A stretch of 34,410 bases of DNA from Bacteroidota bacterium (GTDB lineage: Bacteria > Bacteroidota > Bacteroidia > Bacteroidales > PXBB01), in NCBI GenBank assembly GCA_022708385.1, contig JAKIYU010000001.1, forward strand, positions 1 to 34,410, read 5' to 3'. Position numbers and translations under genes: made by a program. How positions within the stretch are numbered: the stretch's first letter is position 1; each line of letters opens with the position of its first letter. Under the pieces are notes generated by a model. That model saw nothing but the letters and a program-made list of their open reading frames with translations. It did not search any database and was not told the origin of the DNA. This document shows positions 12,175-25,400 of the stretch, in pieces.

Positions 12175-12246
12175 TAGTCCGTAGGGGAATCGAACCCCTG
12201 TTTCCAGGATGAAAACCTGGCGTCCTAACCCCTAGACGAACGGACC
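12175..12246 (-). tRNA. tRNA-Glu, anticodon UUC
   Basis: The reverse complement folds by hand as GGTCCGT-TC-GTCT-AGGGGTTA-GGAC-G-CCAGG-TTTTCAT-CCTGG-AAAC-AGGGG-TTCGATT-CCCCT-ACGGACT-A. That gives a 7-bp acceptor stem (G1.U72 wobble), T-loop TTCGATT, and anticodon loop U33-UUC-A37. The 4-nt variable loop is as in other tRNA-Glu. No CCA is encoded. It lies 24 nt upstream of rpsT on the same strand. Confidence 0.9.
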
Positions 12247-15743: not shown

Positions 15744-18700
15744 ATGAAGCGTAAGTATAACGAATACAAGCAGTTAAATCTTTCTTTAATCAGCAGGGAA
15801 ATAAGGCAGTACTGGGAGAGTGAAAATATATTTGAGAAAAGTGTGGAGATGCGTAAGGGGCATACACCTTATGTGTTTTACGAAGGACCACCTTCAGCCA
15901 ATGGAAAACCAGGCATACACCATGTGATGGCACGGGCTATTAAAGATATTTTCTGCAGATATAAAACCCAAAAGGGTTGCCTTGTTGAACGTAAAGGCGG
16001 CTGGGATACGCATGGCCTGCCTGTAGAGATAGGTGTTGAGAAAGCTCTGGGCATCACAAAAGAGGACATAGGCAAGAAGATATCCATTGCCGAATATAAC
16101 AATGCCTGTCGCAAGGATGTGATGAAGTTTAAGAGTGAATGGGACGAAATTACCCGCATGATGGGCTACTGGGTGGATCTTGAAAACCCCTACATCACAT
16201 TCGAAAACAACTATATAGAAACCCTGTGGTATTTGCTTAAAAAGCTTTACGATAAAGGCTTACTGTATAAAGGTTATACCATACAACCCTATTCACCGGC
16301 TGCCGGAACAGGCTTAAGTACTCACGAACTGAACCAACCGGGCTGCTACAAAATGGTAAAAGACACTACGGTAGTGGCCCAGTTTAAAGTGATACGCAAC
16401 GAAAGATCGGAATTCCTTTTTAAAGCGACCGACACCCCTGTTTATTTTCTGGCTTGGACAACTACACCCTGGACATTACCCTCTAACACCGGTTTGGCTG
16501 TCGGAGCAGGTATTAACTATAGTTTGGTAAGAACTTTTAATCCCTATACATTTAAACCTATTACGGTTGTTTTGGCAGAAGACCTTTTGGGTACTTATTT
16601 CCCGGAGAAAAATGCCGGTTTGAATGTGGAGGATTATAAAGATGGTGATAAGAATATTCCTTTTAAATTACTGGGTTCTTATAAAGGTAAGGATTTCGAA
16701 AATATCCGCTATGAGCAGTTATTGCCTTATGCACAACCCGAAGAAGGCGACCCTTTCAGGGTGGTAATAGGCGACTTTGTAACCACCGAGGATGGAACCG
16801 GTATTGTGCACATAGCCCCCAGTTTTGGCGCCGACGACTTCAGGGTGGGGCGGCAGTATGGGCTGGGTGCCCTTACTATGGTGGACAAGCAGGGGAAGTT
16901 TACGGCAGAGATGGGCGAGTTTGCCCATCGCTTTGTAAAGGTGGAATATGACCCGGGCCACAACCCCGAAACAGACAATTCGGTTGATGTGGATATTGTG
17001 ATTAAACTCAAAAAAGAGAACAAAGCTTTTAAAGCAGAAAAATACGAACACTCCTATCCCCATTGCTGGCGCACTGATAAGCCTGTGCTTTACTATCCGC
17101 TCGATTCGTGGTTTATAAAGACTACAGCCATGAAAGACAGGATGATTGAGCTGAACAAAACCATAAATTGGAAACCCGAATCCACAGGTACAGGTCGTTT
17201 TGGTAACTGGCTCGAGAACCTTGTGGACTGGAATCTGTCGCGAAGCCGCTATTGGGGCACCCCCTTACCAATATGGGTTGACGAGAGCCGCGAACATATA
17301 ATATGTATCGGCAGTATTGAAGAACTGAAGAATGAAGCATACAAGGCCATAGAAAGAGGCCTTTATGGTTTTGATTACCTGAAAAATATAATTTCGAAGT
17401 ACGAGACTGTGTTTACCGGTGAAGAACTGGCAGATTTTGGCGCGCGTATAGCCTGTATTACAGAAAAGCAGGATGCCACAGGCCTGAAAAAACTGGCTTG
17501 CAAAGTGGTTGATTTTCTGCTCAGGGACCTGCACAGGCCTTATGTGGATGATATTATCCTGACAGCAAGCAACGGCGCCCCTATGCGCCGTGAACCCGAC
17601 CTTATCGATGTTTGGTTCGACAGTGGCGCCATGCCCTATGCCCAGTGGCATTACCCCTTCGAAAAGAAAGAATTTGTAGATAACCATATCGCATTCCCGG
17701 CCGATTTTATTGCCGAAGGTGTGGATCAGACACGCGGCTGGTTCTTTACACTTCATGCTCTGGCTGTTATGTTGTTCGATTCAGTGGCTTTTAAAACGGT
17801 TGTGTCTAATGGGCTGGTGCTTGATAAAGAAGGTAATAAAATGTCCAAACGACTTGGCAATGCCGTTGACCCTTTTCTTGCCATCGAAAAATACGGACCC
17901 GACGCCGTGCGCTGGTATATGATTACCAATGCACAGCCCTGGGACAATTTGAAATTTGACTGGACCATTATTGAAAAAAGCAGTCTGGATAAAAGCTCCG
18001 AAAACGAAAGAGAATGGCTGGAAACTACCGATGAAAACGGAAAGGTATGGATGCACCGCTCGGACAGCATTATTGATGTGCAACGTAAGTTTTTTGGTAC
18101 ACTGTATAATACCTATGCTTTTTTTGCACTCTATGCCAATATTGATGGGTTTTGCTACGAGGAACCCGACATACCTTTAAATCAACGCACCGAAATTGAC
18201 AGATGGATAATTTCTGAACTGAATACCCTTATAAAAGAGGTAGATAATTCCTATGCACAATATGAACCCACACGTGCCGGCAGGCTTATACAGAATTTTG
18301 TTGATGAGTTCCTGAGCAACTGGTATGTGCGTTTGTGTCGCCGTCGTTTCTGGAAGGGAGAGTATTCTGATGATAAGATTGCGGCTTACCAGACCCTCTA
18401 CACCTGCCTGGATGTTATTGCCCGCCTGTCGGCTCCCATAGCCCCGTTTTTTATGGAAAAACTTTTCAGGGACCTGAACCAGGTGACCCGCCAACATACC
18501 GCAGATTCGGTGCACCTTGCCGATTTTCCTGTATGCAATGAAACCCTGATTGACAAAGCGCTTGAAGAGCGAATGCAAATGGCTCAGAAATTTTCCTCGA
18601 TGGTATTATCGTTGCGGAAAAAGCATAATATACGCGTCAGGCAACCCCTTAACAAAATTCTCATACCTGTTCTGAATCCGGTATTTGAAGAACAGCTGCG

Positions 18701-19307
18701 AAAGGTTGAAAGCCTTATTTTGTCGGAAGTCAATGTTAAAAATGCCGAATATCTTTACGACACAACGGGTTTTATAGTGAAAAAAATAAAGCCTAACTTT
18801 AAAACGCTGGGCCCGAGGTACGGCAAAATCATGAAGCAAATTGCTGCTGCTATACAATCTTTTGGAAATAATGAAATTGGGATTATAGAGAGGGAGAATA
18901 CCTACGGCTTTGTTTGTGAAAACCAACAGGTGGTACTGACACAGGAGGATGTGGTTATCTCAACTGAAGATGTACCCGGCTGGCTGGTTACAAGTATGAA
19001 TGGCCTGACGGTCGCACTTGATACTACCATTACGCCTGAACTTAAAGAAGAGGGTATTGCCCGTGAAATTATCAACAGAATTCAGAATTTGCGAAAGGAA
19101 AAAGGATTTGAGGTAACTGATAAGATTAATGTAGCGATACAACATCATGACGAAATAAATTCAGCTATTCATAATAATATTTCGTATATTTGTGCCGAAA
19201 TTCTTGCTGATGATATTCAGATAGTGGAATGTATTCAACAGGAAAGCGCTGACGAAGTGGAAGTAATTGATAATTTGACAACGAAAATAGTTATTGAACG
19301 AAAATAA
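15744..19307 (+). CDS. ileS: Isoleucine--tRNA ligase (type 2, long form)
   Basis: 1187 aa. HIGH-type motif PSANGKPGIHHV, KMSKS motif NKMSKRLGN, the CP1 editing region, and class Ia anticodon-binding helices (RKFFGTLYNTYAFFALYAN). Confidence 0.95.
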   Translation: MKRKYNEYKQLNLSLISREIRQYWESENIFEKSVEMRKGHTPYVFYEGPPSANGKPGIHHVMARAIKDIFCRYKTQKGCLVERKGGWDTHGLPVEIGVEKALGITKEDIGKKISIAEYNNACRKDVMKFKSEWDEITRMMGYWVDLENPYITFENNYIETLWYLLKKLYDKGLLYKGYTIQPYSPAAGTGLSTHELNQPGCYKMVKDTTVVAQFKVIRNERSEFLFKATDTPVYFLAWTTTPWTLPSNTGLAVGAGINYSLVRTFNPYTFKPITVVLAEDLLGTYFPEKNAGLNVEDYKDGDKNIPFKLLGSYKGKDFENIRYEQLLPYAQPEEGDPFRVVIGDFVTTEDGTGIVHIAPSFGADDFRVGRQYGLGALTMVDKQGKFTAEMGEFAHRFVKVEYDPGHNPETDNSVDVDIVIKLKKENKAFKAEKYEHSYPHCWRTDKPVLYYPLDSWFIKTTAMKDRMIELNKTINWKPESTGTGRFGNWLENLVDWNLSRSRYWGTPLPIWVDESREHIICIGSIEELKNEAYKAIERGLYGFDYLKNIISKYETVFTGEELADFGARIACITEKQDATGLKKLACKVVDFLLRDLHRPYVDDIILTASNGAPMRREPDLIDVWFDSGAMPYAQWHYPFEKKEFVDNHIAFPADFIAEGVDQTRGWFFTLHALAVMLFDSVAFKTVVSNGLVLDKEGNKMSKRLGNAVDPFLAIEKYGPDAVRWYMITNAQPWDNLKFDWTIIEKSSLDKSSENEREWLETTDENGKVWMHRSDSIIDVQRKFFGTLYNTYAFFALYANIDGFCYEEPDIPLNQRTEIDRWIISELNTLIKEVDNSYAQYEPTRAGRLIQNFVDEFLSNWYVRLCRRRFWKGEYSDDKIAAYQTLYTCLDVIARLSAPIAPFFMEKLFRDLNQVTRQHTADSVHLADFPVCNETLIDKALEERMQMAQKFSSMVLSLRKKHNIRVRQPLNKILIPVLNPVFEEQLRKVESLILSEVNVKNAEYLYDTTGFIVKKIKPNFKTLGPRYGKIMKQIAAAIQSFGNNEIGIIERENTYGFVCENQQVVLTQEDVVISTEDVPGWLVTSMNGLTVALDTTITPELKEEGIAREIINRIQNLRKEKGFEVTDKINVAIQHHDEINSAIHNNISYICAEILADDIQIVECIQQESADEVEVIDNLTTKIVIERK

Positions 19308-19319
19308 AAAATAAAGGAT

Positions 19320-19721
19320 ATGGAAGAGAGCACTAAGAAAGTTAAGACAAGGTACAGCGATGAGGATTTGCAGGAATTCAAAAAAATAATTCTTGAAAAA
19401 CTGGAAAAAGCCAGAAAGGATTTAGAATTGCTGACAGAGGCCTATACGTCAATAAATGAAAACGACACCAACGATACGGCACATAGCTTTAAGGTAATGG
19501 AAGAAGGTTCGCAGGTATTGTCCAAAGAAGAAAACAGCAGACTGGCTGCCCGTCAGATGAAGTTTATTCGCGATTTGGAGAATGCCCTTATACGCATAGA
19601 AAATAAAACATACGGTATTTGCAGGGTAACCGGAAAGCTGATTTCCAAAGAACGTTTGCGTAGTGTACCCCACGCTACACTAAGTATTGAAGCGAAGCTT
19701 AATCAGAGTTCATCTAAATAA
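19320..19721 (+). CDS. DksA/TraR family protein, cysteine-poor variant
   Basis: 133 aa, 12 nt after ileS. It has an acidic coiled-coil N-terminal part. The C-terminal YGICRVTGKLISKERLRSVPHATLSIEAK resembles the DksA/TraR finger region, but the ORF has only one Cys. Confidence 0.7.
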   Translation: MEESTKKVKTRYSDEDLQEFKKIILEKLEKARKDLELLTEAYTSINENDTNDTAHSFKVMEEGSQVLSKEENSRLAARQMKFIRDLENALIRIENKTYGICRVTGKLISKERLRSVPHATLSIEAKLNQSSSK

Positions 19722-19745: not shown

Positions 19746-20360
19746 TTGAAGAAAGCGCTGTTAGTAGTTTTTTCAGTATTGCTTATTGACCAGACTGTTA
19801 AATTTTGGGTTAAGCTAAGTATGCAGTTGGGGGAAGAGATACCTGTGCTTGGTAAGTGGTTTTATATACATTTTACGGAGAATTATGGTATGGCTTTCGG
19901 CATGCAGTTCGGTGGTGAGTGGGGTAAAATTGTCCTGACATTGCTGAGAATACTTGCCTGTTGTGCTATAGCTTGGTTTATTTATTACCTGAGTAAAAAA
20001 AAGGCTCCCACTGGTTTTATCGTTTCTGTTTCCCTGATACTTGCAGGGGCCATGGGCAATATAATCGACAGTGTTTTTTATGGTGTTTTATTTAGCGACA
20101 GTATGTTTCAGGTTGCTTCGTTTATGCCTGCTGAGGGCGGTTATGCAACGTTCTGGCATGGCAGGGTGGTGGATATGTTTTATTTCCCAATTATAGAGGG
20201 ACATTTTCCACAATGGTTTCCGATATGGAAAGGGGAAGAGTTTTTGTTTTTCAGACCTGTATTTAATGTGGCCGATTCTTCTATAACAATAGGCGTAGCA
20301 TTAATTATTCTTTTTCAGAAAAAGTATTTAAAAAGTCTGCAAGAAATCAAAAAAGATTAA
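19746..20360 (+). CDS. lspA: Lipoprotein signal peptidase (signal peptidase II)
   Basis: 204 aa with a TTG start (no in-frame ATG before the conserved LIDQ.VK region). Motifs NYGMAFG, GAMGNIIDS, VVDMFYF and FNVADSSITIG. Conserved ileS-lspA neighbourhood. Confidence 0.9.
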   Translation: MKKALLVVFSVLLIDQTVKFWVKLSMQLGEEIPVLGKWFYIHFTENYGMAFGMQFGGEWGKIVLTLLRILACCAIAWFIYYLSKKKAPTGFIVSVSLILAGAMGNIIDSVFYGVLFSDSMFQVASFMPAEGGYATFWHGRVVDMFYFPIIEGHFPQWFPIWKGEEFLFFRPVFNVADSSITIGVALIILFQKKYLKSLQEIKKD

Positions 20361-21454
20361 TTATCAGGGGCATCTTTAATCATTTTATAATGGCATCTTA
20401 GTACATCGTGATTTTCGACGTCTCTCAGGTGAATGCCATTTCCTTTGCACCATTTAAATATGTCGCAATCGGCACATAAGCCTTCTTTAGTCCATGCCCG
20501 TTTTCGCATCTGAGAGAACCTGTTTTGCCACACATCCATGAAGTCGTCGGTGTAGATGCTGCCTTGTGTGAAATGTGCCCTGTCTATATTGGGGCAGGCA
20601 CAAATAGAACCATCGGCAAGCACAGAAGCAATGTGAATACCTGCCCTGCAGAAGAAGAAACCTTCGCGTACTTCCGATTCGTAATTACCCAGAAATCCCT
20701 CGCAGCCAAAACTTGTTTCGATAGTCTTTTCCCCCCTGCCTGATTTGATGAAATCAAGCAGTTTGCAGAACTGTTGGTTGGTAAGGCTCAGTTCGGGGTT
20801 ATCTTTAGCTCTGCCGATAGGGCAAATGCTGAACAGCCGCCATTTTTTCAGACCCAGTTCAATAAGAAACAGTTTCAGTTGCTCTAATTCGGTAAAATTG
20901 CGTTGATTGACACAGGTAGCCACATCGAAAACAATTCTGTTGCCTGCGCCAACAGCCAGCTTTATGGCTTCTGTTGCTTTGCGGAAATTATGCGGATTTC
21001 CTCTGAGCCAGTTGTGGCTTTGTTCAAAGCCATCAAGGCTTATAGTCATTGAACGCAAGCCGCTGTTTAATAGTTTTTCAAAACGTTCTTCAGTAAGTGC
21101 ATACCCATTGGTAACAAAGCCCCATGGGAAGCCCAAATTCTTCAGTGCCATACCGCAATCTTCAAGGTCTTTGCGCATCAGGGGTTCTCCGCCTGTAATG
21201 ACTATCATAACCTTATTGGGATTGTAATGTGCTTTAACTTGTTGTGCTACTTTAATAAAATCCTCGTAAGGCATATCTTTAACACGGTTGTCGTGCCGGC
21301 AGTCGCTGCCACAGTGAATGCAACTTATATTGCAACGGAGCGTACATTCCCAAAACAGATAGGAGAGTTCGTGCAGTTGTGCCTGGGCATCGGTATATTT
21401 GCTGAAAAGATTCAGTGCAATCCGTTTGCGTAAAGACGGCTTGTGGTTTTTCAC
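20357..21454 (-). CDS. Radical SAM enzyme with a C-terminal SPASM/twitch-type auxiliary Cys cluster domain
   Basis: 365 aa. CxxxCxxC in ECTLRCNISCIHCGS, a GGEP motif (VITGGEPLMR), and a Cys-rich C-terminus (FFFCRAG...SICACPN...GLCADCDIFKWCKGNG). The GTG start is forced, because the first internal Met lies after the FeS motif. Confidence 0.85.
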   Translation of the reverse strand: MKNHKPSLRKRIALNLFSKYTDAQAQLHELSYLFWECTLRCNISCIHCGSDCRHDNRVKDMPYEDFIKVAQQVKAHYNPNKVMIVITGGEPLMRKDLEDCGMALKNLGFPWGFVTNGYALTEERFEKLLNSGLRSMTISLDGFEQSHNWLRGNPHNFRKATEAIKLAVGAGNRIVFDVATCVNQRNFTELEQLKLFLIELGLKKWRLFSICPIGRAKDNPELSLTNQQFCKLLDFIKSGRGEKTIETSFGCEGFLGNYESEVREGFFFCRAGIHIASVLADGSICACPNIDRAHFTQGSIYTDDFMDVWQNRFSQMRKRAWTKEGLCADCDIFKWCKGNGIHLRDVENHDVLRCHYKMIKDAPDN

Positions 21455-21455
21455 A

Positions 21456-21611
21456 CTATCTGATTTTTTCAGAAGACCTGTAATCGGAAGGTGGACCGTA
21501 TTTGGTTTTTGGCCTGGTATGGCACGAAAACCCCAATAGCAGTAACCCCAAAAGTAATAAAATGGCGTACAGGTTTTTCAAACCGAAAAAGTTTTTTCTG
21601 TTGCCAGCCAT
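21456..21611 (-). CDS. 51-aa lipoprotein-type small protein; candidate rSAM-associated peptide (not in the ORF track)
   Basis: Hand translation of ATG 21611..21609 to TAG 21458..21456 gives MAGNRKNFFGLKNLYAILLLLGLLLLGFSCHTRPKTKYGPPSDYRSSEKIR. It has a basic n-region, a Leu-rich core and a lipobox-like LGFS|C. The stop is 1 nt before the rSAM GTG. Confidence 0.7.
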   Translation of the reverse strand: MAGNRKNFFGLKNLYAILLLLGLLLLGFSCHTRPKTKYGPPSDYRSSEKIR

Positions 21612-21622
21612 GACTGCAGTTT

Positions 21623-21970
21623 TTAGTTGTTCTTCATATTATACGGCACACCATATTTTGTAGTAGGATGGCCGGGTTTATATGGGTTAGGCTTTTTGAT
21701 TTTAGCCAGTGAATCAGCTTTGGCCACAGAATCGACTCGTTTTAGAGAGTCTTCGAAAGCGATTTTTGCTTTAGCAATAGAATCGACTTTGGCAATAGAG
21801 TCGTTTGCAGCATTAGCCCTTGCAATTGAATCATTTGTGCTGTTTTCACAATTTTGGGCTGATGGTGATGTGCATCGCGGAAACAGGAATACACACAATG
21901 CCCCGTATGTAAGAAGGAGCGTGAAAAAAATCCGCGACTTAATGTTATAATAGAATCTGCTGATTTTCAT
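21623..21970 (-). CDS. 115-aa membrane-anchored or secreted repeat protein with a C-terminal TKYGVP motif
   Basis: Hydrophobic N-terminus (IFFTLLLTYGALCVFLFPRC). Six DS(I/V/L)(A/K)(K/R) repeat units. The tail is KPNPYKPGHPTTKYGVPYNMKNN. It ends 11 nt before the sORF start and begins 24 nt after the caspase-like gene's stop. Confidence 0.6.
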   Translation of the reverse strand: MKISRFYYNIKSRIFFTLLLTYGALCVFLFPRCTSPSAQNCENSTNDSIARANAANDSIAKVDSIAKAKIAFEDSLKRVDSVAKADSLAKIKKPNPYKPGHPTTKYGVPYNMKNN

Positions 21971-21994: not shown

Positions 21995-24316
21995 TTATTG
22001 TTTCAGTTTTTTGGTGCTCCACACGTTTTCGACTTCGGGGCTTTTGTTCACCTGTGGTGTTTGGGACTTTTTGTTAACCACGATAGATTGCTGGGAAACG
22101 TTGTTAATGATGTAAGAGCCGAGGTCTCCCAGTGTAGCGGCACCTTTTGATTCCTGAAGTTTTTTGAGGAGGAAGTAAGTGAACATACCGTGTTGTTTTT
22201 CGGTGTAAGGGAAAGCGGTTTCGTCGCCGGAAGCAGCGCTGAATACGACAATGTTACCGGAAAGGTTTTCGGTTTTGGGATTAATTTTCACACCTCTGCC
22301 CTGGGCGAGCATTTGTTCGTTAGTTTCGCGGGAAGCGCCGCTGAAGCAGGCATCGAGGAATACGGTAACGGAAGCTGTTGGGAACTCGGTAAGTTTGGCA
22401 TAGACGTCGGCAAGTTTCACGGCGGTGACGGTGTTTTGCGAGCTGCCGTCAACGGGGAGAATGAAAGCGCTTTTGGTTTGTTCGTCGGGCATACCGTGGC
22501 CGGCGTAGTAGAAGATGATGCTGGCCTGGCCTTTATAGGCTTTGGCCACATCGTTAATCCATTTGAGGGCGTCGAGAATCTGGCCGAATGTGGCGTTTTC
22601 GGCGTAGTGGATATTGTTTGCAGGTAGCCCAAGTGTTTTGGTGAGGTATTGTTTAAAGATACGGGCATCGTTGAGTGCAAATTTTACCTGAATTTCCTTG
22701 GCATACACTTCGTTGCCAATAACCACAGCAAAAGTTTTGTCGTTGGTGCCTGTAGCGGCGGGGATGTTTTGGTCCACATCCGAAACAAAGTCGGGAATGT
22801 CTTCGATAACGATTTTACCTTTAACGGGAGCGTCGTTGTTGTTAGAGGCTACAGTTCTGATAAATCCTTCTTCCTGCAGCACTTTGTTTATTTCTACGGA
22901 TTTGTCCACACTGAAACCATACTTGCCGATTCTTTCAGTAGCAGTTATATTGAATGTGAGTTGTGTGCCGGTAAATTCGCTGTTAACGAAGTACATGTAG
23001 GTAATGGTTTCGTATTTACCTGAGGGAATAGAAGTGAAAGAGGGATTTTTGCGGACGAGGTTGCCTGCATTATCTACAACACCGAGTGGCAAGACGCCAG
23101 TTTGGTTGTTGGCAATAGCTATGCTGACATTGTCGGCATTGCCTTGTCCAACATTCTGGACAGCGAATTTAACGTCAATTTGTTCGTTGATGTCAATCTG
23201 GTTGTTTGGGTTGGCCGAGAGGTTTTCGACAACGGCAAACTTGGCAATAATGAGTTCGGGTTTCTGGAATTCGCGTGTGGGGAATTTAACCTGTTTGCCC
23301 TGTATTTTGACTTTAAATTTGGGTTCAACGACTTCAATTTTAAGTACAGCCTCACCTGTAGTGAGTTCGAGGCCGCCTTTGATGTCGATATTAATGGTTT
23401 GGCTGCCGCCTCCTTTTGCAATAGTGGGGAAGTTGTTTTTTTGTTTGAAAGAGAGGCCTGCCATGTCGCTTGACAGGTTCACATAAACGCCTGAAGCATC
23501 ACCTGCGCCAATGTTTTTGAGAGTAATGGTAAGTTGAGCTGTTTCTTCGGCGTTAAGAAAGTTCTTCGACAGGGTAATTTCCTGAATGGACAGGATGGGG
23601 AGCAAGTCGCTTACAAAGCCATCGTTCTGATTGTTGTCGGGCTGCTTTTGTTGTTGTTGCTGAACAGGTTTGTCTTTCACTTCAGCCACATCCTGATTAT
23701 TACTTTGTGTATAAGAGGGTGAAGCAGAGAAATTGACGCCCAGATCCACATAGTTTTCGCCTTTAGTTTTGCAGGGTGATGAACTGCTGAGTTTGAAATT
23801 ACCTCCCGAAGCATCTATAAAACCGGGTTCTTTTTCGTAAATATTGTTTGAAAGCGTGTAGTTGCTGCTGGAAGTGGGTTTTGTTTTAACAAGTGAATAC
23901 TTAATAGTGGTATTTCCTGAACTGTTGCTATAGGTGTTCATAATGGTGTTTTTTACAACAACATCAGAAACATGATTGTATATTTCATAAGAGTAGTTGT
24001 CGTAAAAAGTACAGTTTGTTACATTGAGGGTGGCATTAGCAGGGAAAAGTGTCCAAAATTTGTTTTCGGTAAAGATGCAGTTGGTGATGTTGCAGGTGGA
24101 GTAGTGTACAGAGAGGCCGCCATAGGAAGCGAGGGAGTTAGGCACGTCGCCGTCCACGTGGTAGGCATGGCTCATTTTACAGAATTCGAGTTCGCTGGTC
24201 TGGTTGGAATTGTCAATGACGATGCTGCTCCATGTACCGTCGCTGCCATCGCGGGTAAAGAAAATGAAGTCGTTTGCCGTTCCTTTTGCAATGAGCTTTC
24301 CTTTAACTCTGAGCAT
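21995..24316 (-). CDS. Peptidase C14 (caspase-like) domain protein with beta-helix and CARDB-like domains; the largest intact piece of a disrupted gene
   Basis: 773 aa. The C-terminal caspase fold has the His/Cys dyad in the canonical context (IIFYYAGHGMPDE and VFLDACFSGAS). The middle has Ig-like repeats (ITLKNIGAGDASGVYVNLSS, VKFAVQNVGQGNADNVSIAIAN). The N-terminus is a right-handed beta-helix-like module. This ORF itself has no signal peptide. Confidence 0.8.
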   Translation of the reverse strand: MLRVKGKLIAKGTANDFIFFTRDGSDGTWSSIVIDNSNQTSELEFCKMSHAYHVDGDVPNSLASYGGLSVHYSTCNITNCIFTENKFWTLFPANATLNVTNCTFYDNYSYEIYNHVSDVVVKNTIMNTYSNSSGNTTIKYSLVKTKPTSSSNYTLSNNIYEKEPGFIDASGGNFKLSSSSPCKTKGENYVDLGVNFSASPSYTQSNNQDVAEVKDKPVQQQQQKQPDNNQNDGFVSDLLPILSIQEITLSKNFLNAEETAQLTITLKNIGAGDASGVYVNLSSDMAGLSFKQKNNFPTIAKGGGSQTINIDIKGGLELTTGEAVLKIEVVEPKFKVKIQGKQVKFPTREFQKPELIIAKFAVVENLSANPNNQIDINEQIDVKFAVQNVGQGNADNVSIAIANNQTGVLPLGVVDNAGNLVRKNPSFTSIPSGKYETITYMYFVNSEFTGTQLTFNITATERIGKYGFSVDKSVEINKVLQEEGFIRTVASNNNDAPVKGKIVIEDIPDFVSDVDQNIPAATGTNDKTFAVVIGNEVYAKEIQVKFALNDARIFKQYLTKTLGLPANNIHYAENATFGQILDALKWINDVAKAYKGQASIIFYYAGHGMPDEQTKSAFILPVDGSSQNTVTAVKLADVYAKLTEFPTASVTVFLDACFSGASRETNEQMLAQGRGVKINPKTENLSGNIVVFSAASGDETAFPYTEKQHGMFTYFLLKKLQESKGAATLGDLGSYIINNVSQQSIVVNKKSQTPQVNKSPEVENVWSTKKLKQ

Positions 24317-25112
24317 ACCTTTGTCGAAACCGCTTGTTGGTGCCTGTTTTGAATTTGACGGTTACACCGGGCTCAATGGTAAGTGTTTTACCTTCAGGTA
24401 CGATGGCTTCACCTTGTATGGTGTAAGGTGATTTTGATTTGGTCCAGGTGCCATACACTTCCTGTTTGTTGGAGATGGTCGAAGAGCCTGAATAGCTCTT
24501 GCTGTTGTTGTCACTGTAATTGCTTTTAGACGCCCCAGAAACCACGGCTCCCATATCGGTGCCATATTCGCCTTTGCCTTTGCATTGTGAGTAACTGCTT
24601 AAAGCATAATTGCCACCGTCAGCATCCTGAAAGCCCGGTCCGTCGCTGTTCTTTATGCAATTGTAATATTTTATGTTGGAGGCTCCGGCTTCATAACCAT
24701 AATTGTCCGATTCTTTTCCAAACGAAAGGTAAGAATTGTAAAAATAGGCACTGTGCTCGCTCAGGCTGTAAAAACAAAGTATTTTTCCCTTGGTGTTGTG
24801 CAGAATGGAACTTTTAACACTAAGTTCCGATTTTGTATGAAAATGAACGGGGTAAAAATAGTTATCGACATTAATCGTTACGTGATTCATATCGAGTTTT
24901 GATTTAAAAAGTGAAACGGCACCCAGTGCATAGATATAATCCCAGCTTGTAATAGCATAGGTATATTCAATAATGCAGTAGTTCAACAGGCATTTGCTAT
25001 CAGTTTCATAAAAAAATAGTACCCCCCAGGTGTCGGAGTTGCCGTAGCGGGTAAAACGTATGGGGTTATTTTCATTGCCATTGGCATTAAGGGTGCCATT
25101 AATGGTCATCAT
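24303..25112 (-). pseudogene. Beta-helix module fragment belonging to the same ancestral gene as 21995..24316, separated from it by a frameshift
   Basis: 269 aa, collinear with the first ~210 aa of the 773-aa ORF (INGTLNANGNENNPIRFTR vs VKGKLIAKGTANDFIFFTR; GPGFQDADGGNYALSSYSQCKGKG vs EPGFIDASGGNFKLSSSSPCKTKG). Its end, ...SPYTIQGEAIVPEGKTLTIEPGVTVKFKTG, continues in another frame as SGFDKGMLRVKGKL. Confidence 0.6.
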
Positions 25113-25392: not shown

Positions 25393-25400
25393 CAAATTTA
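25393..25400 (-). promoter_or_regulatory. Candidate -7 box TAAATTTG upstream of the disrupted caspase-like gene
   Basis: Plus-strand caaattta is the reverse complement of TAAATTTG (TAnnTTTG), 30 nt upstream of ATG 25363. Confidence 0.35.

Follow-up and report, generated by a model that had tools for sequence, protein, structure and literature searches.

A 51-codon gene hidden beside a TIGR04133 radical SAM/SPASM enzyme in a Bacteroidota genome: a candidate lipoprotein-type spliceotide system

The DNA analysed here (the window) is a stretch of 34,410 nucleotides, positions 1 to 34,410 of contig JAKIYU010000001.1 from a Bacteroidota bacterium (assembly GCA_022708385.1). On its minus strand lies a putative operon in which a small open reading frame (sORF) of 51 amino acids (aa) stands immediately in front of the gene for a radical S-adenosylmethionine (SAM)/SPASM enzyme. 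The complete order is a 269-aa and a 773-aa open reading frame (ORF) that overlap, a gap of 24 nt, a 115-aa ORF, a gap of 11 nt, the 51-aa sORF, a gap of 1 nt and the enzyme gene (Table 1), and a terminator scan found no terminator-like site within this series. A preliminary description of the window had taken the sORF for the precursor and the enzyme for its maturase, in the layout of systems for peptides that are made by the ribosome and modified after translation (RiPPs). Our analysis supports this layout and adds to it a second substrate that had been overlooked, the 115-aa ORF upstream. We interpret the locus as a minimal version of the known TIGR04133/TIGR04134 system and as a predicted lipoprotein-type spliceotide system, an interpretation drawn from sequence comparison whose chances we regard as evenly balanced.

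Table 1. Positions of the features discussed in the text.
Feature	Position	Strand	Basis
sORF, pre-prolipoprotein-type substrate peptide (predicted)	21456..21611 (stop included)	minus	translation, homologues, coding signature
Signal peptide, residues 1-29; n-region MAGNRKNFFGLKN, h-region LYAILLLLGLLLLGF, Ser29 at -1	21525..21611	minus	hydropathy, conservation
Cys30, predicted lipobox cysteine, diacylglycerol site and mature N-terminus	21522..21524	minus	invariant in 18/18
Core motif P34-K-T-K37-Y38-G39-P-P-S-D-Y44	21480..21512	minus	K, Y, G, P invariant
K37-Y38-G39, predicted modification (splice) site	21495..21503	minus	invariance in homologues
TAG-t-GTG junction, sORF stop and enzyme start 1 nt apart	21452..21458	minus	sequence read
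115-aa ORF, second, longer substrate (predicted)	21623..21970	minus	8 homologues
K105-Y106-G107, second predicted modification site	21650..21658	minus	invariant in homologues
365-aa radical SAM/SPASM enzyme, TIGR04133	20357..21454	minus	NCBIfam, Pfam
C41-x3-C45-x2-C48, radical-SAM [4Fe-4S] motif	21311..21334	minus	76/76 sequences
SPASM region, invariant C251, C269, C287, C327, C330, C336, C354 (auxiliary Fe-S clusters)	20393..20704	minus	Pfam, alignment
773-aa protein, C-terminal caspase (Peptidase_C14) domain	21995-24316	minus	Pfam; sub-threshold DUF5123 and CARDB matches in N-terminal part
269-aa ORF, overlaps 773-aa ORF by 14 nt	24303-25112	minus	ORF list
lspA (lipoprotein signal peptidase II)	19746-20360	plus	NF011369, 267 bits
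tRNA gene	12175-12246	minus	Rfam; only window match at gathering threshold

Translation of the minus strand from the ATG at 21611 to the TAG ending at 21456 gives MAGNRKNFFGLKNLYAILLLLGLLLLGFSCHTRPKTKYGPPSDYRSSEKIR, exactly the peptide that had been quoted before, and the ORF list of the window indeed holds no ORF of at least 60 aa between 21454 and 21623. The TAG occupies 21456-21458, a single t 21455 and the GTG of the enzyme ORF 21452-21454. This GTG is the first start after the in-frame stop and, as previously claimed, the only one available, no further in-frame ATG, GTG or TTG being present between it and the CNISCIHC cluster. Read from its sequence, the TAG-t-GTG junction is a predicted translational coupling of the two genes, and a spacing of 0-2 nt between sORF stop and enzyme start also occurs in the related loci L004 and L006.

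Comparison with related genomes speaks for a translated gene. In 5 of the 9 closest genomes (enzymes 66-75% identical) an equivalent ORF of 53-71 aa occupies this place with the orientation unchanged, and its end lies 0-17 nt ahead of the enzyme start; the 4 others have no short gene and keep other YG proteins. Across the six genomes compared, the sORF frame is the sole frame open throughout, and the differences amount to 0.51, 0.44 and 0.65 at codon positions 1, 2 and 3, respectively. A profile of the six peptides searched against 5.8 billion protein clusters returned 17 homologues, all unnamed or annotated as 'hypothetical', and none of the proteins in these clusters is more than 65% identical to the sORF peptide. 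In the resulting alignment of 18 sequences, C30, K37, Y38, G39 and the next Pro are invariant and the insertions and deletions are whole codons. Two of the short homologues (P0015 and P0017) contain TKYG.P twice each, and another has a Gly directly after the YG (KYGGP).

A public record, MWAN01000002.1 (GCA_002069425.1), carries an identical enzyme protein with the same neighbours, and its gene calls pass from the 115-aa gene straight to the enzyme gene, leaving out the sORF. Since it is unannotated there and has no close protein in the clusters, the sORF is truly 'hidden'. Could it be an untranslated chance ORF in an intergenic spacer? It is short and missing from the public annotation, and the AT-rich composition of the window (40% GC) makes chance ORFs likelier; however, the 18 sequences with their invariant Cys and KYG.P, the whole-codon indels, the single open frame, the excess of third-position changes and a stop lying 0-2 nt from the enzyme start in several genomes make this explanation highly improbable. 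Antisense or alternative-frame genes at 21456-21611 were rejected because such frames are interrupted in the homologues. On these comparative grounds the sORF is a real gene for a predicted exported peptide of lipoprotein type, and we consider it very probable that it is both a real gene and a substrate of the enzyme.

The first 29 residues have the anatomy of a signal peptide that the preliminary description had recognized, with basic residues R5, K6 and K12, a 15-residue Leu-rich core and a small residue at -1 before the invariant Cys. The hydropathy peak reaches 2.8-3.3 across residues 14-28, and the stretch ILLLISGIxLLGFSSC is conserved among the homologues. This pattern fits a signal peptide of the signal peptidase II type with a lipobox Cys, and lipidation is predicted from it. 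Cleavage before Cys30 would leave a mature part of 22 residues, the length stated earlier, with a pI of 9.9 and, unlipidated, a monoisotopic mass of 2605.32 Da. The label of 'surface peptide' did not survive: surface export in Bacteroidota is linked to an acidic stretch after the lipoprotein Cys, and here the Cys is followed by the basic HTRPK, so that surface exposure is not supported. We infer that the signal peptide may double as the 'leader' by which the enzyme recognizes its substrate.

In the 115-aa ORF product the N-terminal part is a hydrophobic anchor containing Cys33, after which come DS.AKADS repeats and, at the C-terminus, PTTKYGVPYNMKNN. Its end, KPGHPTTKYGVPYNMKNN, contains TKYGVP, the same KYG.P site as in the 51-mer, so that the window holds two tandem substrates, with K-Y-G present twice. 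In its 8 homologues C33, K105, Y106 and G107 are invariant and the repeats are common to all, and several bear a second site, xEYG.P. In a survey of 80 genomic loci with genes for such enzymes, all relatives of the one in the window, the 115-aa ORF was the only neighbour from the window that tblastn found conserved beside the enzyme gene. Neither it nor the sORF gave anything meaningful in Pfam or NCBIfam.

Two further observations concern this family. Between the anchor and the KYG site its members carry 2-4 DS[IV]AKADS repeats. On the opposite strand, a 107-aa antisense ORF (21627-21950, plus strand) reads 'LYGTPY'; it was rejected as a second substrate, since the KYGVPY codons, when reverse-complemented, give YGTPY by coincidence.

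The enzyme was considered, in the preliminary description, as possibly one half of a TIGR04133/TIGR04134 pair. This half stands: the protein scores 522.6 bits on TIGR04133 (rSAM_w_lipo; cut-off 425, E = 4e-157) over profile positions 1-349 of 350, and it falls far under the cut-off on every other NCBIfam model. Pfam places Radical_SAM at residues 37-195 and SPASM at 269-331, in agreement with the earlier assignment of the gene. The CX3CX2C motif and the seven SPASM-region cysteines are kept in 75-76 of 76 sequences, and C37, C52 (which flank the motif) and C181 are also invariant across the 76 homologues. Sequence and domain scans revealed neither a signal peptide or hydrophobic N-terminus nor a RiPP recognition element (RRE)/PqqD domain, and the enzyme is accordingly expected to be cytoplasmic. 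We found 166 relatives in genomes. Solved structures gave only remote matches (BlsE at 1e-14, SkfB, CteB/5v1q). The TIGR04133/TIGR04134 pair is found in Bacteroidales of the gut and the environment (Parabacteroides, Phocaeicola, Bacteroides and many metagenome-assembled genomes (MAGs) from the rumen), and also in Fibrobacterales and Treponema. Two examples outside the Bacteroidota are L085 2613-4089 (Treponema saccharophilum pTS1) and L016 (a Fibrobacterales MAG). TIGR04133 has no functional name in NCBIfam (June 2026) or RefSeq, and our literature search found no mention of it, a single hit for TIGR04134 (in a review of the type IX secretion system) and nothing on lipoproteins associated with radical SAM enzymes.

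Weak generic similarity to AhbD, NirJ and TIGR04053 could be taken to mean that the enzyme has an unrelated, already known role, in anaerobic sulfatase maturation or in an AhbD/NirJ-like step of heme or cofactor biosynthesis, and that the lipoprotein genes are bystanders. But TIGR04133 is the only family on which it exceeds a curated cut-off, the sulfatase maturase model TIGR03942 is not among its 25 best families, and no sulfatase, heme or nir gene is found in the window or in the 80 related loci, nor does any other known substrate lie nearby; only YG proteins are conserved as neighbours. This explanation is the least probable of those we considered.

The conservation of a short KYG.P ORF upstream of orthologous enzyme genes, which had been proposed as a check, is borne out in the 5 close genomes mentioned above, and it forms part of a wider pattern. 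In 73 of the 80 loci, the enzyme gene has next to it, either co-directional and upstream or in divergent orientation, a gene whose product has a hydrophobic N-terminus and a Cys followed by YG. The main classes of these partners are: FQA↓CYG[TM]P… proteins (the arrow marks predicted cleavage) of ~125 aa or 60-76 aa; SC-x(2-13)-[KEM]YG.P proteins of ~150 aa, which TIGR04134 recognizes at 44-140 bits; and the short and 115-aa types found in the window. Close relatives have up to five partner genes in tandem, and the Fibrobacterales partner (L016), a Ser/Glu-rich protein of 169 aa, has five YG sites. Some partners are of the signal peptidase I type, with VAA↓QYG[AV]P (L004 1951-2409, L005 2591-3049, L009 696-1157, L010 2180-3010 and L012 3602-3982; the L010 protein carries a C-terminal sorting domain of the type IX secretion system). 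As judged from the motif, cleavage at this point would expose Gln-Tyr-Gly as the mature N-terminus (the Bacteroidetes 'Q-rule'). The existence of such partners indicates that what seems to define a substrate is an XYG directly behind the signal peptide, whether or not the protein is lipidated. The other flanking genes are unrelated from locus to locus (CotH, VIT/Plug, cohesin, histidine kinase, GH3, helicase, OstA). As only the YG partners recur, the functional unit would consist of at least one exported XYG protein and the radical SAM enzyme.

How would the enzyme recognize these proteins? In the CYG class (53 loci, e.g. L027 3513-3902 and L062 3828-4025), whose signal peptide reads MKWLHNLLKGASLTTALFVFQA directly followed by CYG, mean pairwise identity is 65% over the 22 residues before the Cys, 29% in the mature part and 68% for the enzyme; within the signal peptide F-5 and Q-2 never vary, and F-3 and A-1 hardly do. 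A signal peptide conserved to this unusual extent, close to the level of the enzyme, suggests that it also serves for recognition.

The wider distribution of partners also bears on the possibility that the sORF encodes a real small lipoprotein which is not modified itself and has a role as escort, anchor or immunity factor, only the larger YG proteins being true substrates. Indeed, the short gene is missing in the 4 close genomes that keep other YG proteins, and the peptide is devoid of the TIGR04134 C-terminal domain. However, K-Y-G-x-P, the site found in every other partner, comprises the sole invariant residues of its mature region after the Cys, and the two TKYG.P copies of P0015 and P0017 point to selection on the site itself. 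We hold this possibility to be very unlikely, and we are confident, if slightly less so than of the gene and its role as substrate, that modification takes place at the YG site.

What is the modification? Tyr and Gly alone are constant across 82 unique first sites, and the residue X before them is K, E, M, C, Q, L, V or A; Pro occupies +3 in 51 of them, and an aromatic residue at +6 or +7 is common without being fixed, the family-wide logo being P-x-x-[KEM]-Y-G-x-P-x-x-x-[YF]. The sites can be repeated within one protein, five times in L016 and twice in the 115-aa family. An invariant X-Y-G site with a variable X, the pattern by which published work defines the target of spliceases, points to tyramine splicing, and the chemistry, which had been described as still unknown, would thereby have a candidate. 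Radical SAM/SPASM spliceases ('X proteins') excise tyramine (C8H9NO) at X-Tyr-Gly and leave an α-keto-β-amino acid, and they work on peptides as well as on proteins (PMC11414181, PMC10533398, PMC11626197, PMC10849128). Binary spliceases do so without a Y protein, a leader helix being used or needed instead, and no splicease structure exists (PMC11414181).

The closest relatives of the enzyme outside its family point in the same direction. When the enzyme was compared by tblastn with 72,556 plasmid records, the five best matches outside TIGR04133 all adjoined XYG-bearing substrates. The best, at 141 bits, is an Agathobacter rectalis enzyme, and the ORF upstream of it ends in GPVMYGTGVRM. Ralstonia and Burkholderia maturases of TIGR03913 ('GDL-motif') follow at 125 bits, with substrates TPYGVAIHQ, AAMYGVAIQ and RTLYGPAIQ, then a Nostoc TIGR04103 enzyme (116 bits by tblastn; 853 bits on TIGR04103, which would correspond to the PlpX family, IPR026482) and an Aureibacter enzyme (113 bits, substrate QPYGAGIRE). 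No XYG neighbour was found for lower-ranked relatives, namely MftC and enzymes of Clostridium botulinum, Microbulbifer, Rhizobium and Bacillus thuringiensis. In a neighbour-joining tree TIGR04133 was monophyletic (100%), and this family, the XYG families and one long-branch Clostridium enzyme split from the rest in 68% of bootstraps. In reciprocal hmmscan comparisons TIGR04133 ranked third or fourth among families for all four XYG enzymes tested, roughly level with AhbD.

The Agathobacter locus deserves a remark of its own. Its small ORF (L083 3713-3919, Agathobacter rectalis NZ_CP143948.1) is unannotated and ends in SKNLFGPVMYGTGVRM. After 80 nt it is followed by a radical SAM/SPASM gene whose product scores nearly equally on TIGR04103, TIGR03913 and TIGR04133, and a transporter gene of the major facilitator superfamily comes next. 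The locus is a possible unrecognized spliceotide-type cluster in a human gut Firmicute.

Several points weigh against the interpretation as a lipoprotein-type splicing system. The bootstrap value of 68% comes from a small tree of plasmid-borne sequences only. The enzyme scores 112 bits on TIGR04103 against a cut-off of 725 and is not a member of the PlpX family, and comparisons with hidden Markov models place it about as near to AhbD/NirJ-type enzymes as to spliceases. Splicing by the TIGR03913 and Agathobacter-type enzymes is itself deduced only from their XYG substrates. The passage of a keto-amide peptide through Sec and lipidation is without a shown precedent, and splicing in the CYG class would be chemically demanding, X there being the very Cys that is lipidated. 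Finally, Arg or Lys stands at -1 of the conserved Cys in 7 of 8 members of the 115-aa family (FSRC, LTRC, FSKC); this makes a poor signal peptidase II site, and the 115-aa partner may thus be signal-anchored and not a lipoprotein.

A rival explanation is that of a real substrate whose YG is modified by other radical SAM chemistry: a C-C or C-O cross-link of the Tyr (e.g. to Pro or to the downstream aromatic residue), epimerization or β-hydroxylation of the Tyr, or modification of the Gly at Cα. SPASM enzymes perform many chemistries, and Tyr is the residue on which MftC and PqqE, relatives as well, are active. The enzyme's own hmmscan result is no closer to the splicease model (112 bits) than to AhbD, NirJ2 and MftC (110-122 bits), and the frequent Pro at +3 and aromatic residue at +6 or +7 could be cross-link partners. 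However, with Pro at +3 in only 51 of 82 sites and an aromatic residue often absent, there is no fixed partner for a cross-link, and in the KYGGP homologue the Gly after YG excludes a three-residue cyclophane to the Cβ of that residue. Furthermore, splicing specifically explains why a variable X precedes an invariant YG and why all five nearest relatives have XYG substrates. Another chemistry at the YG is possible, though we lean against it. In our assessment the substrate evidence for splicing, drawn from these sequences, is strong and the evidence from enzyme relatedness moderate, and we rate tyramine splicing as the actual chemistry at about the midpoint between doubt and acceptance.

If tyramine splicing is the reaction, the following order of events can be proposed. 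The 115-aa, 51-aa and enzyme genes would be co-transcribed from the minus strand, possibly starting from the caspase-like genes further upstream. The cytoplasmic enzyme would bind the precursor before its export through the core P-K-T-K-Y-G-P-P-S-D-Y and probably also through the helical signal peptide acting as a leader; the conserved signal peptide of the CYG class fits the need of binary spliceases for a leader helix. A radical derived from SAM would start the excision of tyramine from Tyr38 (C8H9NO, -135.07 Da), and the Tyr carbonyl would be rejoined to Lys37, giving an α-keto-β-lysine-Gly keto-amide, a product suggested by the invariant X-Y-G and by the nearest relatives. The same excision would take place at K105-Y106-G107 of the 115-aa protein. 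Sec export, lipidation of Cys30 and cleavage by signal peptidase II would come afterwards, with Lgt, LspA and Lnt as the processing enzymes, and the end product would be a basic lipopeptide of 21 residues, anchored in the envelope and containing α-keto-β-lysine. That a cytoplasmic splicease converts K37-Y38-G39 into this keto-amide prior to Sec export and lipidation is a sequence-based proposal that we judge could go either way.

The function of such a product is more speculative. Clan-CD peptidases usually cut after Lys or Arg, and the electrophilic keto-amide with its Lys side chain might act as a warhead against Ser or Cys proteases or as a reactive handle. The adjacent C14 peptidase is speculatively a tempting target for this Lys-bearing warhead, although the adjacency is not conserved elsewhere. 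Keto-amides are proven pharmacophores of protease inhibitors and bio-orthogonal labelling handles (PMC11626197, PMC10533398), and in the Rheinheimera system unspliced peptides are inactive (PMC11626197). In its most extended form, the hypothesis would make the TIGR04133 system the first radical-SAM branch of lipoprotein-pathway RiPPs, producing envelope-anchored peptides and proteins with α-keto-β-amino-acid warheads; here the two KYG warheads would be co-transcribed with, and would regulate or inhibit, the clan-CD C14 peptidase encoded 24 nt upstream, or would inhibit external Lys/Arg-specific proteases, and the Sec signal peptide would double as the activating leader helix of the splicease. 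In this complete form we think it unlikely to be correct.

The remaining neighbours have little bearing on the system. The 269-aa and 773-aa proteins have similar starts ('...NG...F(T)R.G..D.W') and both are without a signal peptide; they look like one gene split by a frameshift, real or due to assembly, or like two paralogous modules. The lspA gene is convergent with the enzyme gene, overlaps it by 4 nt at its stop and is the last of an apparent string with ileS (15744-19307) and a dksA-like gene (19320-19721). Among the 80 related loci, tblastn found lspA, dksA-like, ileS, the caspase-like C14 gene and the 269-aa ORF beside the enzyme gene in none, and functional links to them were rejected on this count. 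The adjacency of lspA, not being conserved, is treated as a coincidence, and any link to the caspase-like gene is a speculation specific to this genome. Scans of the window for sigma-70 promoters and terminators gave counts at chance level, and a Bacteroidetes-type -7 motif, TAAATTTG, at 25400 is weak evidence for a promoter.

If our interpretation is correct, an electrophilic keto-amide would directly follow the membrane anchor in many Bacteroidota envelope proteins, the spliceotides would come to include exported lipoproteins, and the idea of lipoprotein-type RiPPs modified before lipidation would extend from multinuclear non-haem iron oxidases (MNIOs) to radical SAM enzymes. The 51-mer is the smallest natural TIGR04133 substrate found here, with a mature peptide of 22 residues, a single site and a gene one base away from that of its enzyme, and its size and single site make it a suitable test case for mass spectrometry. 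With a cut-off of 60 aa for ORFs, or with standard gene callers, the key gene of a cassette of this kind can go unnoticed.

How does the locus compare with known systems? The nearest is TIGR04134 (lipo_with_rSAM, 'radical SAM-associated putative lipoprotein'), which like TIGR04133 is modelled as a 'hypothetical equivalog' and has been assigned no function by NCBIfam. Its members share with the sORF a position immediately upstream of the enzyme gene and a signal peptide with a conserved Cys and a YG motif. Unlike them, the 51-mer has no C-terminal domain of ~100 aa, which fills most of the 150-position profile, occurs only in the larger partners and gives weak CarboxypepD_reg-like matches below the Pfam cut-offs. 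The second half of the suggested pairing consequently fails on formal grounds: neither the sORF nor the 115-aa ORF matches TIGR04134 at E <= 10 (cut-off 39.8 bits), and a 57-aa homologue in L004 reaches 16 bits, where canonical partners reach 44-140, so that formal membership was rejected. As this homologue aligns only over profile positions ~8-41, the signal peptide and the YG, the sORF can be seen as a minimal relative without the family domain. A canonical TIGR04134 protein is missing from the window, whose two partners, of 51 aa and 115 aa, are both atypical.

The TIGR03913 systems ('GDL motif peptide-associated radical SAM/SPASM maturase'; Burkholderia, Ralstonia, Aureibacter) are among the closest relatives outside the family and have substrates with XYG. 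They differ in the length of their enzymes (about 490 aa) and in their DUF1842/DUF1843 substrates, which are cytoplasmic and helical, have an ...SGDL motif further downstream and lack a signal peptide. In these GDL substrates the X-Y-G (or Y-A) lies ~12 residues before the GDL (TPYGVAIHQAIADGDL, AAMYGVAIQSAAASGDL; L087 560-2125, L086 1088-2410, L084 2204-2917), a feature that the NCBIfam name of TIGR03913 omits. A precedent for the working logic proposed here is given by the anaerobic sulfatase-maturating enzyme (anSME), a SPASM enzyme whose protein target is modified at a short linear motif while still in the cytoplasm, ahead of Sec export, with neither a leader nor an RRE; it belongs to another family and acts on another motif (C/S-x-P-x-R in sulfatases).

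For the use of a lipoprotein signal in place of a leader peptide, which had been considered unusual, a published precedent now exists in the diacylglycerol (DAG)-RiPPs (DybA/DybH and relatives; PNAS 2026), which are modified in the cytoplasm and then processed by Lgt, LspA and Lnt (PMC13056109). They have a short precursor with a lipoprotein signal and an enzyme without signal peptide, in clusters of two genes that occur in Bacteroidota (PMC13056109), and they resemble the present system, whose lipoprotein signal and lipidation are predicted from the sequence pattern. There, however, an MNIO (DUF692) acts in all described cases, on a C-terminal CPACGMG, and here a radical SAM/SPASM enzyme would act on X-Y-G; the genome mining for DAG-RiPPs was limited to MNIO neighbourhoods (PMC13056109).

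The comparison that guides our interpretation is that with the spliceotides and their spliceases (PlpX, PcpX, RhaX, RcsX). The PlpA splice tags are GGPIRP[L/G]YGLPI and GAVAAGYGVVFPG (PMC10533398), and natural cores PIRPLYGLPI and AVAAMYGVVFPG can be deduced from the GYG/LYG tags of that study. The present system differs from them: the enzyme belongs to another family, with 24-26% identity to a TIGR04103 member, and its substrates have Sec signal peptides and lipoboxes where spliceotide precursors have Nif11 or NHLP leaders. A search of YG frequency next to all radical SAM/SPASM genes by Scott et al. 2022 (Chem) is reported to have predicted 939 splicease systems (PMC10533398, PMC10849128), and the TIGR04133 family may already be among them. 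The likenesses are in the site and its setting: a variable X before an invariant Tyr-Gly, often with x-Pro next, sites that can be repeated, and a radical SAM/SPASM gene beside its substrate. As in the binary spliceotide systems, which have no Y protein, the window has no gene for a Y protein or an RRE. Finally, the splice tags and cores resemble the motifs of this family (VPLYGIPV, APEYGVPY, KYGGPPAGY, KYGPPSDY), as does the core …ALYGLPPELF of the Nif11 precursor that lies beside the true TIGR04103 enzyme of Nostoc.

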